Shown here: positions 1 to 41,155 of the stretch, piece by piece | Numbering within the stretch: the stretch's first letter is position 1 | Layout: the number at the start of each line of letters is the position of its first letter | Assembly (NCBI GenBank): GCA_003553505.1 | Contig: PWEN01000042.1 | Location: forward strand, 1 to 62,876 | Length of the DNA stretch: 62,876 nucleotides | Reading direction: 5' to 3' | Source: Candidatus Nealsonbacteria bacterium | GTDB lineage: Bacteria; Patescibacteriota; Minisyncoccia; Minisyncoccales; PWPS01 | Program-made: the position numbers and the translations under genes | Notes under the pieces: generated by a model | The model's input: the letters and a program-made list of their open reading frames with translations, nothing else | The model's database searches: none | What the model was told of the DNA's origin: nothing

Positions 1-914
<914 letters not shown>

Positions 915-22080: not shown

Positions 22081-23693
22081 AGACGAAGTACATATTTGTT
22101 ACTGGAGGGGTGATGTCGGGAATAGGCAAGGGGGTTGTTACGGCATCTGTTTTAAGAATACTGCAATCAAAGGGGTACAGTGTAACGGCTCTCAAGGTAG
22201 ATCCTTATTTAAATGTGGATGCCGGAACTATGAATCCCATAGAGCATGGAGAGGTTTTTGTAACGGATGATGGCTCGGAAGGTGATCAAGATCTTGGCAA
22301 CTATGAAAGGTTTGCCGGAATTGATCTTTCAGAAAAAAACTACATGACAACGGGAAAAGTTTATCGTTCTGTAATAGAAAAGGAGCGTAATCTAGAGTAT
22401 GAAGGGAAGTGTGTGGAGGTTGTTCCAGATATCCCCAACGAAGTTATACGAAGAATAAAAGAAGCAGGGAAAGATGTTGATTTTGCTCTTGTTGAAATAG
22501 GTGGAACGGTGGGTGAGTACCAGAACATGCTCTTTCTCGAGGCGGCTCGCATGATGCGTCTTGAGAGTCCCCAAGATGTGCTTTTCTTCTTGGTTAGTTA
22601 TCTTCCTGTACCAAACACAATAGGAGAGATGAAGACCAAGCCCACACAAGCGGCAAGTCGTTCTCTTAATGCGGCAGGAATACAGCCTGATTTTATCATA
22701 GGAAGATCTCCTGTTTCTATGGATGAGGTGAGGAAGCGCAAGATCTCTGTTTTTTGTAGCGTAGATGAAAGGGATGTTATATCCTCTCCTGATATAGAGT
22801 GTATGTATGAGGCTCCTATTGTGTTTGAAGAGGAGGGGCTGGGAAGGCGAATACTTGAAAAATTCAACTTAAAAAAGAAACAGGACGACATGAGTGACTG
22901 GAAGAACTTTGTTTCCATGGCAAAGAAAAGATCAAGGAGTGCTAAGATAGCGATCATAGGAAAGTATTTTGAGACGGGAGACTTTGTTCTCTCTGATGCA
23001 TATATATCTGTTATTGAGGCAGTAAAACATGCCTGCTATAACATGGGGTATAGCGATGATATATCTTGGATATCCGCCAGTCGTTATGAGGAAGATCCTT
23101 CTAGTGTGGAGGAGCTTTTAAATTATGACGGTGTTATTGTTCCCGGTGGTTTTGGCAAGAGAGGAGTAGAGGGGAAGATAGAAGCGATAAAGTTTTGCAG
23201 AGAGAACAGCATCCCTTTTTTGGGGCTTTGCATGGGTATGCAGCTTGCGGTTATTGAGTTTGCGCGCAATGTGTGTGGCATGCATGAGGCTTCTTCGTCG
23301 GAGTTTTCCAGTGACACTCCTTTTCCGGTCATCACCATTATGCCGGATCAGGAAGATCTAATCAGAAAGAAAAAATATGGAGGAAGCATGAGACTGGGAG
23401 CCTTTCGGTGCAAATTAAAAAAAGGAACACTTTCTTTTAAGGCGTATGAAAAAAGCGAGATAAGTGAGCGTCACAGACATCGCTTTGAGTTAAACAACGA
23501 ATTTCGTGAAACTTTGGAGAAAAATGAAATGATCGTGGCGGGAAATAATCCGGACCACGATCTGGTTGAGATAATAGAATTAGGGAATCACCCCTTCTTC
23601 TTAGGTACGCAGTTTCATCCGGAGTATAAATCAAGACCGCTTGAGCCGCACCCTTTATTTAAGGAATTTATCAAGAAAGCTCTTGAACGTTAA
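22077..23693 (+). CDS. pyrG: CTP synthase
   Basis: [36 protein letters not shown]. Confidence 0.97.
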
Positions 23694-23952
23694 CGACTTT
23701 TACCTTTCTTTTTGTTCCGTCGAATCTTGTTCTTACCTTGTCTGAGAACTTTACCTTACCGTCCTTTAATGCGTAAAGAGTATCGTCTCTTCCTCTTTTT
23801 ACATTCTTTCCGGGGAAGAACTTTGTTCCTCTTTGGCGTACTATAATATTTCCCGTTTTCACTGATTGATCGCCAAAGATCTTCACTCCCAAGTATTTTG
23901 GTTGTGAGTCTCTACCTGTTTTTACTGTTCCTGCACTTTTTGTTTTAGCCAT
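23671..23952 (-). CDS. rpmA: 50S ribosomal protein L27
   Basis: [29 protein letters not shown]. Confidence 0.96.
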
Positions 23953-23975
23953 ATGTTTTCGTTTAAATTTAAAAT

Positions 23976-24164
23976 ATGTTACCAAAAATAAGAGATTTTG
24001 TCAAAAAGAATAAATTTGATATCATTCTTTTTTTAGGGGTTGTGCTTGTCTCGTTGTTGTCGTTCTCATTGGGATACATAACCGCTAAAATGGAAGAAAA
24101 AGAACCGCTTAAATTTGAAGAGCCAATATATGAAGATACCTCGATCAATAGGCATAATTCCTGA
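23976..24164 (+). CDS. Small single-TM hypothetical protein
   Basis: One hydrophobic helix ending SFSLGYI; fills the rpmA-uppS gap. Confidence 0.65.
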
Positions 24165-24801
24165 CGGCAACAGAAGGTGGGCAAAAAAGAATAATTTTCC
24201 CAACATAGAAGGTCATCGCAAGGGGTTGTTGAAATTTAAAAGAGTAGGGGAATGGTGTCTGGAAAAGGGCATATCGACAATGACCATATTCTCTTTTTCT
24301 AGTGAAAACAAAAATAGATCAGAAGAAGAGATAAAATATTTGACAAAAATAGTAAATAATGCGCTTAATAAAAAAAACATCGAAGAGTTTAAGAAAAAAG
24401 GCGTGCGTTTGCGGGTAGTGGGGGATGTAGGGTCTTTTTCATGTGACATAAAGGAAAGGGCTCAAAAGGCAGAGGAAGAAACGAGAGGTGGTGATAAAAT
24501 GGGCATTAATGTTGCGCTTAATTATGGTGGAAGGTGGGAGATACTGTCTGCTGCTGAAAAGATGGCTAAAGAAGGCAATGAGTTCACAGAAGAGAATTTT
24601 TCTCAAAATCTTGCCATAAAAGAGTTTCCCGATCTTATTATACGTACGGGAAAAGAAAAGCGTCTTTCAAACTTTATGTTGTGGCAAGCCGCTTACAGTG
24701 AACTATACTTCTCTGACAGCTATTGGCCGGAGTTCTCAAAGAAAGAGTTTGAGTATATTCTTGAATATTATGCGAAGAAAGAAAGAAGATTTGGGAGGTA
24801 A
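24130..24801 (+). CDS. uppS: Undecaprenyl diphosphate synthase
   Basis: [35 protein letters not shown]. Confidence 0.95.
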   Translation: MKIPRSIGIIPDGNRRWAKKNNFPNIEGHRKGLLKFKRVGEWCLEKGISTMTIFSFSSENKNRSEEEIKYLTKIVNNALNKKNIEEFKKKGVRLRVVGDVGSFSCDIKERAQKAEEETRGGDKMGINVALNYGGRWEILSAAEKMAKEGNEFTEENFSQNLAIKEFPDLIIRTGKEKRLSNFMLWQAAYSELYFSDSYWPEFSKKEFEYILEYYAKKERRFGR

Positions 24802-24803
24802 AG

Positions 24804-24831
24804 AGGGTGTATTTGTTGTATTATACGAAGA
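24804..24831 (-). other. Degenerate dif-like site (one good arm) downstream of xer
   Basis: Minus strand TCTTCGTATAA-TACAAC-AAATACACCCT; first arm matches the upstream arm ACTTCGCATAA at 9/11. Confidence 0.45.
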
Positions 24832-24862
24832 AAGAAAATAAGTCTTGGAAAATGAAGGTAGG

Positions 24863-25825
24863 TTATTCTTTCATGTCCTTTCCGCCATGAAACTCTCTGT
24901 GTATATCCCTTAGTCTTTGGCTTGTTATGTGAGTATAGACTTGAGTTGTAGCAATATTTCTGTGCCCGAGGAACTCTTGAATTACTCTTAGATCAACTCC
25001 TTGAGCGAGAAGGTCGGTAGCGTAAGTATGGCGTATAGTGTGTGGGGTTGTAATTATTGGTATTCCCGCTTTTTTGGAGTATTTTTTAACTATATTCTCC
25101 ACAGAACGAGAAGTGAGGCGTTTATCAGCACTTCTGGGTCCTTTATGCCTTATAAAAAGCGCTTTTTCTTTATCATTGCGCTTTTTGAGATATGCATCCA
25201 CCGCTTTTACGGCACGATTGCTGAAATAAACGGTTCGTGGATGATCTCCTTTTCCTACGATAACCACTTCCAGATCTTCTGTTTCCGGTTTTATTTTTAA
25301 CTGTTCACGGTCGAGGCTGACAAGTTCTGCAACGCGTAACCCAGTAGAGAAAAGAGTTTCTAGGATAGCTCTGTCACGTAATCCTGTTTTACTGTTTGTG
25401 TCGGGGGCAAGGAGTAGCTTTTCTATCTGATCCATCTCTAAAAACTTTACAGCGCGTTCTTTTTTCTCTTTTGTAAGTTTAACTTTTTCTGCTGGCAGTG
25501 ATGCTATGCTGCGATCTGCAAAGTAATTTAAAAGTGCACGGAGAGCGATAAGGTAATAGTTGCGTGTTCTTTTTTTGATCGGTTCTTTTGTTTGATTGTT
25601 CTTACGAGAAGAGAGGTAAACACGATAGTTCCAAACGTGTTCTTCTGTTATCTCATGAGGCTTTAACTCTTCCAAGTTATTTTCTTGTAGCCAGTTTATA
25701 AAACTCTGCAGGAAGCGTGAGTAGGTTTCCTGTGTTTTTTTTGCAACACCTTTTTCTATATCGAGATATTCAAAAAACCGGGGTACGTGTTCTATTATAG
25801 GCTTTTTATCTTTTTTAAGCGCCAT
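24863..25825 (-). CDS. XerC/D-family tyrosine recombinase
   Basis: Catalytic set intact: GLRVAEL, GKG, HTIRH, LGH, TQVYTH. Confidence 0.93.
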   Translation of the reverse strand: MALKKDKKPIIEHVPRFFEYLDIEKGVAKKTQETYSRFLQSFINWLQENNLEELKPHEITEEHVWNYRVYLSSRKNNQTKEPIKKRTRNYYLIALRALLNYFADRSIASLPAEKVKLTKEKKERAVKFLEMDQIEKLLLAPDTNSKTGLRDRAILETLFSTGLRVAELVSLDREQLKIKPETEDLEVVIVGKGDHPRTVYFSNRAVKAVDAYLKKRNDKEKALFIRHKGPRSADKRLTSRSVENIVKKYSKKAGIPIITTPHTIRHTYATDLLAQGVDLRVIQEFLGHRNIATTQVYTHITSQRLRDIHREFHGGKDMKE

Positions 25826-25853
25826 ACTTCGGTAAAGTTATCTTATGCGAAGT
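25826..25853 (-). other. Putative dif / Xer binding site (11-6-11)
   Basis: Minus strand ACTTCGCATAA-GATAAC-TTTACCGAAGT directly followed by the xer ATG; outer ACTTCG/CGAAGT inverted repeat. Confidence 0.75.
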
Positions 25854-25862
25854 AATATATAT

Positions 25863-26120
25863 TTACTCCCCATTGAAGGACAGGGACTCCACAACAGAAT
25901 CTCGCACACTGTCGATTGTAGATCTTATAGCTTCGTTTATTGATTCTTTGACTTTTTCCTTTTCCTTTTCTGCTTCTTTTTCGACTATCTCTTTCCTTTC
26001 TTCAAAAATAGAAACAACTCTGTTTTTGATCTCCTCTGTCGCTTCTTTTCCTGTTTCTGTGAATCCAAACAAGACGACAAGAGCAGCAATAGATAAGACT
26101 ATGATGATTGCTCTGATCAT
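25863..26120 (-). CDS. Small N-terminal TM plus coiled-coil hypothetical protein
   Basis: Hydrophobic N-terminus, TETGKE, charged helix. Confidence 0.7.
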   Translation of the reverse strand: MIRAIIIVLSIAALVVLFGFTETGKEATEEIKNRVVSIFEERKEIVEKEAEKEKEKVKESINEAIRSTIDSVRDSVVESLSFNGE

Positions 26121-26287
26121 AATATATTTTTTACTTTATTTACTATGTCCCAGAAGTATGAAGCAAGGACATCATACGAGTAAGCAAGCACATCGATTAA
26201 TTGATCGGCAATGTCTCTCCCACTCTCTGTTGCTGCCAGAAAAATAAGAAAGATTAATACTAATACAAAGGATATGTTTTTTATCAT
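26117..26287 (-). CDS. Small TM protein, 56 aa, absent from the ORF track
   Basis: Manual translation MIKNISFVLVLIFLIFLAATESGRDIADQL...KNIL; ATGA overlaps at both ends. Confidence 0.7.
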   Translation of the reverse strand: MIKNISFVLVLIFLIFLAATESGRDIADQLIDVLAYSYDVLASYFWDIVNKVKNIL

Positions 26288-27741
26288 AACTTCTTTTTTG
26301 CCTTTCTAAGCCTTTTTAATACTTCATCCCGTCCCAACACCCAAGATATCTCAAAAGGTCCTGCAGAGGCCTTTTTTCCGCTTAATGCGACGCGAAATGG
26401 CCACAAAAATGACCCTTTATCACTTCCTGCTCTCTCTATTAGTGTTTTTTCTATGCTTTCCATGTCCCACTTATCTATCTCTAAAACGGCCTCTTCTCCC
26501 CTTTTGAGCGAATCATATATCTCTTCATCACTCATGTTCTTCCATCTTAGCATTTCTTTGTCATAATCAACAGGAGCAAAGAAGTAATCCGCAAGTTTTG
26601 TTATTTCAGAGAGATTTTTCATTCTTTCTTTGCATATCGATACTGTTTTTGCAATATCTTCTAATGAGAATTGTTTTCCTTGACTATTGAAGTATTTTCC
26701 CTCTTTTTGTTCAAGAAATCCGGACTCAGTAAGGAAAGGTACACACATTTCCGCCAGCTCATTATCATCTTTTTGACGTATATAGTATCCGTTTATGGAG
26801 TCTAATTTGTCTATATTGAACACTGCTCCACTTTTCTTGCACTTTTCTAACTTGAACTCTTCTATTATCTCCTCTAAAGAGTATATTTCTCTTTCTCCTC
26901 CGGGATTCCATCCCAGGAAGGATATAAAGTTGATCATTGCCTCCGGGAGATATCCCATCTCTTTATACTCTTGAACGGAAACGGCAGCGTGTCGCTTAGA
27001 TAATTTGCTCTTGTCGGGGCCCAGTATAAGTGGTAAGTGTGCATAGTAAGGAGTATTTATTCCCAGCGCTTTTTGTATAAGTATCTGTCTAGGAGTGTTT
27101 GATATGTGATCTTCTCCCCTTATTACATGTGATATCTCCATTTCGTGGTCATCAATCACTACTACAAAGTTGTAGAGTGCTGAAAAATCACTTTTTCCGA
27201 TAACAAAATCTCCTATTTCGTTGTTATCAAAAGAAACTTTTCCCCGAATAAGGTCGTTAAAAGTTGTGCTTTCTTCTTTTGGAGAACGAAAACGGATCAC
27301 AAAGTCGCCTTTTTTCTCGTTTTTTTTCTGGGCACACTTGCCACTGTAGCGCGGTGCTTCACCTCTTTCCAGCTGTTTTTTTCTTTCCTTTTCTAACTCC
27401 TCTGCACTACAAAAACAGGGATACGCCTTGTCTTCTTGAAGTAGTTTTTGGAGGTATTTTTTGTATATCTCCCCTCTCTCACTTTGCCTATAAGGACCAT
27501 AAGACCCCTTTTCACTTTCCTCTGTCACTCCTTCGTCATAATTTATGTTTAACCACTTTATACTTCGTATAATATCAAGCTCATACTCTCTCTTTGATCT
27601 TGTCTTGTCTGTGTCTTCTATACGCAATATAAAATCTCCCTTGTTCTTTTTTGCGAATAGATAGTTAAAAAGGGCCACTCTTGCGGAGCCTATATGAAAA
27701 GGACCCGTAGGAGAGGGGGCGAATCTTACTCTTTTTTTCAT
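26284..27741 (-). CDS. gltX: Glutamate--tRNA ligase
   Basis: RFAPSPTG, HIGS, LRIEDTD, HVIRGEDH, KLSKR. Confidence 0.97.
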   Translation of the reverse strand: MKKRVRFAPSPTGPFHIGSARVALFNYLFAKKNKGDFILRIEDTDKTRSKREYELDIIRSIKWLNINYDEGVTEESEKGSYGPYRQSERGEIYKKYLQKLLQEDKAYPCFCSAEELEKERKKQLERGEAPRYSGKCAQKKNEKKGDFVIRFRSPKEESTTFNDLIRGKVSFDNNEIGDFVIGKSDFSALYNFVVVIDDHEMEISHVIRGEDHISNTPRQILIQKALGINTPYYAHLPLILGPDKSKLSKRHAAVSVQEYKEMGYLPEAMINFISFLGWNPGGEREIYSLEEIIEEFKLEKCKKSGAVFNIDKLDSINGYYIRQKDDNELAEMCVPFLTESGFLEQKEGKYFNSQGKQFSLEDIAKTVSICKERMKNLSEITKLADYFFAPVDYDKEMLRWKNMSDEEIYDSLKRGEEAVLEIDKWDMESIEKTLIERAGSDKGSFLWPFRVALSGKKASAGPFEISWVLGRDEVLKRLRKAKKKL

Positions 27742-40732: not shown

Positions 40733-41155
40733 ATGAAGAAAGAAGAAACAGAAATTCAAGAGATCATAAACCACTACTTTTTCACAAAAGGGTTCAGTCT
40801 TGAGGACATAAAGGAAAACTCAAAGAAGAAAAAGATAGTCTATTCGCGTCATACGCGACCCGCAAAAGACTTGCTTGAGCTTGCCGGAAGCACAAAAAAA
40901 GCAAAAAAGGCAATAGATAAGGTCGCTGCTTGGGCGAAGTCAAGGAACCTGGACTATGCCATTGAAACTGTTTTCAAGAAGTGGCCGGAGATAGACAAGT
41001 TAAAGGCGAAAGAGAAAGAGAAAAAACCTTATTATTGCGGAGATCTCATGGTAAAATCAAAGAGAAACGGTAAGTGGTATGTGATCGATAAAAGTGGTGA
41101 ATGGTTGGAGTTTGCGGGAAAAGAAGAGGATATAGAATGGAGATTAGAAGATTAA
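40733..41155 (+). CDS. Hypothetical protein (140 aa, basic)
   Basis: Clean ORF with TATAAT 9 nt upstream; co-oriented with fmt. Confidence 0.75.
   Translation: MKKEETEIQEIINHYFFTKGFSLEDIKENSKKKKIVYSRHTRPAKDLLELAGSTKKAKKAIDKVAAWAKSRNLDYAIETVFKKWPEIDKLKAKEKEKKPYYCGDLMVKSKRNGKWYVIDKSGEWLEFAGKEEDIEWRLED

Follow-up and report, generated by a model that had tools for sequence, protein, structure and literature searches.

A predicted single-recombinase Xer/dif module at the replichore junction of a Nealsonbacteria-like bacterium

The stretch of DNA analyzed here (62,876 nucleotides; hereafter, the window) is contig C16 of a Candidatus Nealsonbacteria genome, G000, which comprises 810 kb in 70 contigs and is 68% complete (G, C and L denote genomes, contigs and loci below). 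It carries a tyrosine recombinase gene, xer, and, directly in front of its start codon, a 28-bp dif-like site. Very probably, the two make up a single-recombinase Xer/dif module for the resolution of chromosome dimers in this Nealsonbacteria-like member of the Candidate Phyla Radiation (CPR). The same core reading, i.e. a single-recombinase module with dif beside the gene and without an XerD-type arm, had been put forward in a first-pass annotation made from the sequence alone; it is now supported by the conservation of the site, the number of recombinase genes and the GC skew. Gene and site form one module, located where the replichores converge. The mechanism we infer from the anatomy of the site, its position and knowledge of the recombinase family. 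The features that carry the argument are as follows.

25826 to 25853, minus strand: dif-like recombination site, identified by sequence reading; unique, conserved beside orthologs of xer and close to the skew maximum
25853 to 25843, minus strand: left arm of the site, ACTTCGCATAA
25842 to 25837, minus strand: central region of the site, GATAAC
25836 to 25826, minus strand: right arm of the site, TTTACCGAAGT
24863 to 25825, minus strand: xer, tyrosine recombinase of 320 amino acids plus stop (PF00589, PF02899), the sole Xer-type one detected in the genome, last gene of the minus block
24802 to 24862, no strand: convergence point of the gene-orientation blocks, from the map of open reading frames (ORFs) and the cumulative skew
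24115 to 24801, plus strand: undecaprenyl-diphosphate-synthase-like gene (PF01255, 1.6e-73), last gene of the plus block, convergent with xer

The site, its recombinase and their place at the replichore junction

On the minus strand, positions 25853 to 25826 read ACTTCGCATAAGATAACTTTACCGAAGT, a 28-mer with the 11-6-11 layout described in the first-pass annotation, and the ATG of xer (25825-25823) follows it without a spacer. The left arm, ACTTCGCATAA, and the mirrored right arm, ACTTCGGTAAA, are identical at 8 of 11 positions: the outer six (ACTTCG/CGAAGT), already pointed out as shared by both arms, mirror each other perfectly, and so do the innermost two. Thus, two inverted arms of about 11 bp enclose a centre within the 6-11 bp usual for Xer/dif sites. 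The inner arm positions 7-9 differ between the arms (in the window, the inner ends are CATAA on the left and, mirrored, GTAAA on the right), and this difference is itself conserved, with CAT on the left and mirrored nTA/T on the right among 62 unique sites, so the site has a direction. The consensus of these 62 sites is ActTCGcAtAA-Tgtanc-TTtAnCGAagT; a second common form reads (A/T)nGTCG(C/T/G)ACAA-TGTAGG-T(T/A)AAGCGAC.

In the window the 28-mer occurs once, even when three mismatches are allowed, with none expected from 100 shuffles. Conservation was assessed in 41 relatives from the order of the window organism, all of which possess an ortholog of xer (in 38 of them the best match is 54-83% identical), and in 80 further loci with 10-kb flanks, obtained by scanning a public genome collection with the ortholog alignment (a single-protein query gave four distant loci). 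Of 30 ortholog loci, 23 have a strict motif upstream of xer, oriented like the gene, at 0 to 241 nt from the ATG; the zero spacing suggested earlier therefore holds for this window and is not a conserved feature. A weight matrix built iteratively from the sites of the relatives gave matches above 12 bits in the 400 nt preceding xer for 93 of 103 distinct loci (seven with identical upstream sequence had been removed), the maximum in shuffled upstream sequences being 6.0 bits, so that the related 28-mer does recur beside the orthologs, as the first-pass annotation had proposed to check. Four of the ten misses are explained: in L010, L015 and L099 the upstream sequence is cut short by the contig end, and in L018 the site lies further upstream (at -481 in L043, a longer locus of the same genome). 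L074 has its site in the opposite orientation with respect to xer.

The site also appears to be single in each chromosome. The matrix scores it at 38.1 bits in the 810-kb genome, with the runner-up at 12.1 bits, and the corresponding values for the closed chromosome of the relative G041 are 39.7 and 17.1 bits. A 19-position pattern matched 31 places in 26 of the 41 related genomes, mostly once per genome (the same pattern read backwards gave nine matches); 25 of these places are beside xer and one more is separated from it by a contig break. A chance palindrome was rejected on the grounds of this conservation and uniqueness.

The protein contains the catalytic domain PF00589 (2.7e-41) and the SAM-like core-binding domain PF02899, and no substitution of the catalytic residues R150, K192, H262, R265, H288 and Y297 is seen among 30 aligned orthologs. 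It thus has both domains and the R-K-H-R-H-Y active site expected of an Xer protein, and its description as an intact tyrosine recombinase was correct. In one relative, the match to the ortholog (G038:C6:26785-27721) is broken into two pieces that overlap but are read in different frames (residues 6-156 and 90-314; open frames of about 170 amino acids), owing either to a frameshift in the gene or to a misassembly; a dif-like motif is still present there at 26651-26669.

Exactly one match to PF00589 was found in 35 of the 41 related genomes, most of which are 96-100% complete, and this bears on the question of Xer paralogs raised by the first-pass annotation. Weak second matches in relatives were rejected as recombinases, as they belong to 255-aa proteins with SAM-like domains only and no catalytic domain. 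In these proteins (L146:836-1603; L147:848-1612), the SAM-like domains are joined to a conserved C-terminal half, and a 140-aa ORF of the window (40733-41155, plus strand) corresponds to this C-terminal half only, with 68% identity. A core-binding-only protein of this kind could in principle bind recombinase sites. G000 itself has two further PF00589 matches, on contigs C13 and C62 (L002:1201-2385 and L003:1159-1653, both on the minus strand). They are integrase-type genes with Cys-rich, zinc-ribbon-like C-terminal tails, and were for this reason rejected as XerC/XerD-type partners; probably they are parts of mobile elements or contamination of the bin. The two are related to each other, with tails of the CxxC...CxxC type; the former adjoins a primase/polymerase-like ORF and the latter a large acidic ORF.

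In the window itself, the left 24 kb have a GC skew of about +0.2 and the right 37 kb one of -0.1 to -0.25, and the cumulative maximum is at 25743, 83 nt from the site. ORFs of at least 150 amino acids are on the plus strand in 1-24801, with two exceptions, and on the minus strand in 24863-62132, with one exception. Loci of at least 20 kb, which make up 40 of the 80, repeat this picture: in 37 of 40, skew changes from positive to negative on passing xer from left to right, a local cumulative maximum is no more than 1.5 kb away in 31 of 40, and genes are arranged as +++|xer|--- in nearly all. As skew and gene orientation are confounded in such loci, we used the closed chromosome of G041 (516,640 bp, the genome behind L092) to separate them. 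There, cumulative skew reaches its global minimum at 209,554, with dnaA nearby (193,115-193,597), and its global peak at 496,613, 2.9 kb away from the site (493,734); xer occupies 493,874-494,824. From these positions, the module is at the replichore junction opposite the origin region, and the location at the skew inflection, raised in the first-pass annotation, thus applies to the window maximum, to 37 of 40 loci and to G041.

Proposed mechanism, regulation and competing explanations

In the mechanism that we propose, two molecules of the adjacent Xer would bind the two quasi-symmetric 11-bp arms, because of the anatomy of the site and the presence of one recombinase per genome; the symmetry of the arms likewise favours one protein on both of them. 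A chromosome dimer would bring two sites together at the closing septum, where four subunits would form a synapse, and strand exchange across the 6-bp central region should, by the mechanism of the family, restore monomers. The asymmetric inner arm positions would make the site directional and probably determine in what order the strands are exchanged. The likely partner is FtsK, whose motor and gamma domains are encoded in one 690-aa frame on contig C68, and which is predicted to be coupled to Xer and would deliver and activate the complex at the terminus.

The symmetry of the arms was examined at the variable mirrored positions 3 and 2, which are symmetric in 92% and 66% of the 62 sites, respectively, as compared with 53% and 43% after shuffling of columns; the observed symmetry was reached in none of 1000 column shuffles, a control that ignores relatedness. 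The symmetry holds for CTTCG/CGAAG and GTCG/CGAC sites, the two major types, although the events behind it were few.

Several points weigh against the proposed dimer-resolution module. A second recombinase could be encoded in the missing part of the 68%-complete genome. Binding, cleavage and dimer resolution at the site are all inferred from sequence. On the protein tree, position 3 shows five changes in the left arm and three to four in the right one, with four to five independent pairs, and with so few changes the sign test for covariation is not significant. In the window, skew switches together with gene orientation and is thus not independent evidence of replication direction. No convincing polar word that could orient FtsK was found in G041, the most skewed 7- and 8-mers being similar to ribosome-binding sites or coding. 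Finally, the picture fades with distance: the skew switch was observed in only 5 of 20 phylum-wide loci with 40-57% identical orthologs, and most of the 40-46% identical orthologs have near the start of xer only a left-arm-like GTCG(C/T)A(C/T)AA and no clear right arm. This motif of distant lineages could be a promoter element (similar to a -10 hexamer), a diverged site, or both.

The upstream neighbourhood of xer bears on its expression, and one more feature has to be introduced here.

25863 to 26120, minus strand: small Lys/Glu-rich ORF of 85 amino acids, without a Pfam family; its stop is 9 nt upstream of the site

No sigma-70-like promoter was detected on the minus strand in the range 24600-26500 of the window, and a second scan, of locus L008, likewise revealed none. 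As the stop of the 85-aa ORF is 9 nt upstream of the site, xer in this genome is probably read through from upstream genes and co-transcribed with this ORF. Relatives likewise have Lys/Glu-rich ORFs of this sort ahead of their promoter and site. Among the 85 loci of distinct relatives with enough upstream sequence, 75 contain a TTGACA-16..18-TAnnnT promoter (at least 9 of 12 matches) beside the site, against a shuffle background of about 3.6 such matches per 1.9 kb on both strands. The first base of the -10 hexamer falls between -21 and -3 relative to the site in 69 of these 75 loci, most often at -17 (27 loci); in 10 loci of genus g3 it is at -3, so that the hexamer overlaps the arm. In most relatives, the promoter would thus fire across the site into xer, the site would occupy approximately +1 to +30 of the transcript, and the protein bound to it could block RNA polymerase, so that occupancy of dif may throttle transcription of xer. 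Since near-consensus promoters accompany the site in 75 of 85 relatives, autorepression through dif occupancy, suggested by the first-pass annotation, is still plausible for the clade.

These promoters also argue for a different explanation, namely, that the element is only an operator, or 5'-untranslated-region regulator, by which the protein controls its own synthesis, with no chromosome recombination taking place there. The -10 hexamers placed so close to the site fit it, as does the -10-hexamer-like TACAAT retained by distant lineages 6-7 nt before the start codon. However, an operator does not need to be at the replichore junction, where the element is found in 37 of 40 loci and in the closed chromosome; nor does it account for the match of the left arm and central region to canonical dif, or for the hybrid and duplicated dif-like sites near the true site in genus g3, which resemble recombination products. 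In the window itself, moreover, there is no promoter at the site. We consider this explanation very unlikely.

Slightly harder still to credit is the possibility that xer and its site belong to an integrated mobile element, the recombinase being its integrase and the 28-mer its att site. In its favour, mobile elements typically carry a tyrosine recombinase beside its own site; in this genus, xer is flanked by left-arm-like half sites, and in some relatives short dif-bounded modules have accumulated beside the site (both are described below). Against this, the gene is present in 41 of 41 relatives and its profile matches 150 of 151 genomes sampled across the phylum; it is the sole tyrosine recombinase in most relatives, keeps the same place at the orientation switch at 58-83% identity, and no second full site bounds an island, each genome having one site. 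The suggestion that the site serves a programmed rearrangement run by the recombinase, for instance as one end of a segment that can be inverted, could be drawn from the inverted dif-like copies with 11-12-nt spacers near the true site in some genus g3 relatives and from the inversion of the whole site in L074, but it is scarcely credible, as the window and most relatives have a single site without an inverted partner (no reverse-strand match to the strict motif in any of 30 loci), the only strong reverse match in most loci is the site's own reverse reading, and the contig joints at the site in public run X1 (see below) lead to unlike sequence, read as other populations, in assembled contigs that drop rare variants and in which an inversion signal was not searched for.

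Half sites, short modules and the scope of the claim

Beside the proposed Xer/dif module, the surroundings of xer contain incomplete copies of the left arm. The word CTTCGYATAA is found seven times in the whole genome, and five of these occurrences fall within 22444-27572 of the window (5.1 kb), with 0.22 expected per window: 22444-22453, 24768-24777, 24821-24830 and 25843-25852 on the minus strand and 27563-27572 on the plus strand. Two of them are pseudo-dif half sites.

24777 to 24768, minus strand: pseudo-dif half site CTTCGCATAA, left-arm-like, downstream of xer, without a right arm
24830 to 24821, minus strand: pseudo-dif half site CTTCGTATAA, left-arm-like, downstream of xer, without a right arm

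Both are in the same orientation as the site, one overlapping the 3' end of the uppS-like gene, and a half-site counterpart is located downstream of xer in both same-genus relatives. The word at 27563 is inside a gltX-like gene, and since several relatives have it at the corresponding position, it may reflect no more than conservation of the coding sequence.

In genus g3, short non-coding modules of 50-115 bp lie between the true site and xer and are bounded by dif-like pseudo-sites. They were found upstream of xer in L013, L020 and L023, in L043 (9440-10010), at the end of L149 and at the start of L150; G007 and G004 carry one module unit each. Some of the modules are inverted with 11-12-nt spacers, which gives long hairpins, and in G020 and G018 there are arrays in which direct pseudo-sites alternate with inverted copies, the latter having 11-nt spacers. 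In G012, contigs C50 and C3 end in a repeated unit of about 113 nt, with junctions inside the right arm, and the repeat breaks the assembly. These modules resemble what insertion and duplication, mediated by Xer or associated with the site, would produce, and may be either miniature elements that exploit Xer or the outcome of unequal crossover.

In public run X1, a possible source of the genome, two contigs of nearly equal depth (43.3 and 43.5) both terminate at, and share, precisely 25826-25855, which supports joining both halves of the window into one genome. Contigs with depths of 116, 18 and 13 share the 28-mer and then diverge, so co-occurring populations carry an identical site in different flanks. 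The contig graph of this run thus has its branch point precisely at the 28-mer, and such sites will make metagenome assemblies prone to breaks or false joins at the terminus.

A broader reading, in which the observations on promoters, half sites and modules are taken together, is tentative, and we regard it as rather unlikely to hold in all four of its parts: a promoter-dif-xer feedback, unlinking of sister chromosomes together with essentiality, a hotspot for the miniature modules, and the flanking of xer by dif and pseudo-dif sites. According to it, the occupancy of dif by the recombinase would set the supply of the recombinase, and the complex might be cleared or licensed when dif is transcribed. 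The module would also unlink sister chromosomes and would be essential, given that these genomes have one GyrA/ParC-family gene and apparently no topoisomerase IV. The 50-115-bp non-coding, dif-bounded modules would be miniature elements exploiting Xer, and in the window's genus xer would stand flanked by dif and pseudo-dif. As to the topoisomerase, a single GyrA/ParC-family gene was found in 21 of 21 genomes (G000:C68:50351-51670 and 20 relatives), the second matches in G008, G030 and G032 being fragments or splits; hence topoisomerase IV seems to be absent. In G030 (C2:39025-41760), the GyrA match is split (profile positions 1-41 and 37-431), with the parts about 1.4 kb apart in one frame of 1299 amino acids, which suggests an intein or another large insertion.

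Much of bacterial diversity belongs to the CPR, or Patescibacteria, whose members are known almost exclusively from metagenome bins. The ortholog profile matches nearly all of the Patescibacteria genomes sampled (150/151, as given above). We rejected the extension of the claim to the whole phylum, as 15 of the 20 distant loci do not support it, and confine the claim to the order of the window organism and to the 55-83% identical orthologs of the public collection. Within these limits, a dif site beside a single-copy xer provides a landmark of the terminus in fragmented bins, useful for closing genomes, checking assemblies and anchoring coverage-based estimates of growth. It also offers a small protein-DNA pair, amenable to experimental testing, from organisms that cannot be grown alone.

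Comparison with known Xer/dif systems

In scores against family models, the protein stays below the curated cut-off in every comparison. It reached 227.5 bits with the NCBIfam XerC model TIGR02224 (cut-off 335.15) and 226.1 bits with the XerD model TIGR02225 (cut-off 329.6), i.e. practically equal scores, both below the cut-offs. It was also below the cut-off with the XerA model NF040815 (199 bits against 220), XerA being archaeal and the host here a bacterium; with the XerS model NF003462 (122.5 bits against 267, only residues 145-307 being aligned); and with the integron integrase model TIGR02249 (88.4 bits against 265, in two short stretches). The closest solved structures are E. coli XerD, 1A0P (1.7e-34), and XerA, 4A8E (6.8e-34) and 5HXY (2.4e-29); the XerH structure 5JJV is distant (1.6e-11).

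With the XerCD/dif systems of E. coli and B. subtilis, the window system shares a 28-bp site at the GC-skew shift point and a closely similar left arm, and resembles them in the central region too, most clearly in some relatives. Compared with E. coli dif, GGTGCGCATAATGTATATTATGTTAAAT (Kono et al., 2011), the window site is identical at 8 of 11 positions in the left arm, 2 of 6 in the centre and 5 of 11 in the right arm; its left arm is also 8/11 identical to that of B. subtilis dif, ACTTCCTAGAATATATATTATGTAAACT (Kono et al., 2011). Some relatives have the TGTATA centre: L024 and L098 carry ACTTCGCATAA-TGTATA-TTTATCGAAGT, in which a run of 15 nt, CGCATAATGTATATT, is common with E. coli dif. 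The differences are that XerC and XerD are two paralogs and the site has a distinct XerD arm, TTATGTTAAAT, whereas the window system has a single gene, and its right arm is a mirror of the left; with only 5 of 11 positions in common with the right arm of E. coli dif, this arm is not of the XerD type, in agreement with the first-pass annotation. In E. coli, furthermore, the genes are not adjacent to dif, a contrast with xerS drawn by Castillo et al. (2017).

We found no canonical site with an XerC and an XerD arm elsewhere in G000 by arm searches and inspection of flanks. With at most one mismatch, there are 35 XerD-type and 20 XerC-type arm matches, and ATAA-N6-TTATG occurs 27 times; none of them combines a dif-like left arm with an XerD-type arm, and the finding that the first-pass annotation had named as refuting its proposal was thus not made in this search. 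Three look-alikes on contig C9 (G000:C9:15879-17113) were set aside as chance occurrences, since they lie in tandem paralogous repeats of about 600 nt, read as coding; each repeat contains GCTTCG(C/T)TGCTTATAA(G/A)(A/G)TTCTTTATGAAGT, which resembles the site with a 5-nt insertion.

Single-recombinase Xer/dif systems as a kind are known, and a dif site in this large uncultured group has apparently not yet been described: in agreement with the remark in the first-pass annotation that no characterized CPR dif site was known, we found no published dif site of the group in the literature searched, which left out the supplements of Smyshlyaev et al. (2021) and Kono et al. (2011). The recombinase clade itself has been noticed earlier by Smyshlyaev et al. 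(2021), who distinguished among Xer-related recombinases a separate 'Cand' subgroup of 'Candidate' phyla that may replace Xer; the available part of that paper, unlike the present analysis, describes no dif site, terminus location or gene-site module.

Some archaea have an xerA/dif module with an 11-6-11 site (Castillo et al., 2017), and in both the archaeal and the window systems a single recombinase would act on a 28-bp site of this layout. Unlike the window system, which encodes a gamma-domain FtsK and has its site at the skew maximum, XerA is described as independent of FtsK and its dif as usually not opposite oriC (Castillo et al., 2017). XerH/difH of Helicobacter and Campylobacter is similarly reported as a single recombinase with a site near its gene, and its hosts as lacking topoisomerase IV (Debowski et al., 2012), which may be compared with the single GyrA/ParC-family gene in the 21 genomes examined here. 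XerH has been linked to chromosome unlinking in Helicobacter. It differs in length (354-362 amino acids as reported) and is only distantly related, and the arms of difH are unrelated in sequence to those of the window site.

The predicted module would function in the manner of archaeal XerA/dif or of XerS/difSL of streptococci and lactococci, for the latter of which one recombinase, a site beside the gene and a module at the terminus have been described (Nolivos et al., 2010; Castillo et al., 2017). There, xerS is immediately adjacent to difSL, the two forming one module, and difH is near xerH, such linkage being a possible hallmark of single-recombinase systems (Castillo et al., 2017). The XerS/difSL system is described as associated with FtsK, and the genome analyzed here encodes FtsK with a gamma domain. 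At the same time, neither the score nor the dimensions are those of XerS: XerS is reported to have 356 amino acids and difSL 31 bp with an 11-bp centre, as against 320 amino acids, 28 bp and 6 bp in the window. The XerL/dif system of Legionellales is, according to its description, another lineage-specific single-recombinase system near the terminus. To these systems the predicted module would add one more lineage, with a site made up of a canonical left half and a right half that mirrors it, and such a half-canonical site bears on the question of how two-recombinase and one-recombinase systems are converted into each other.

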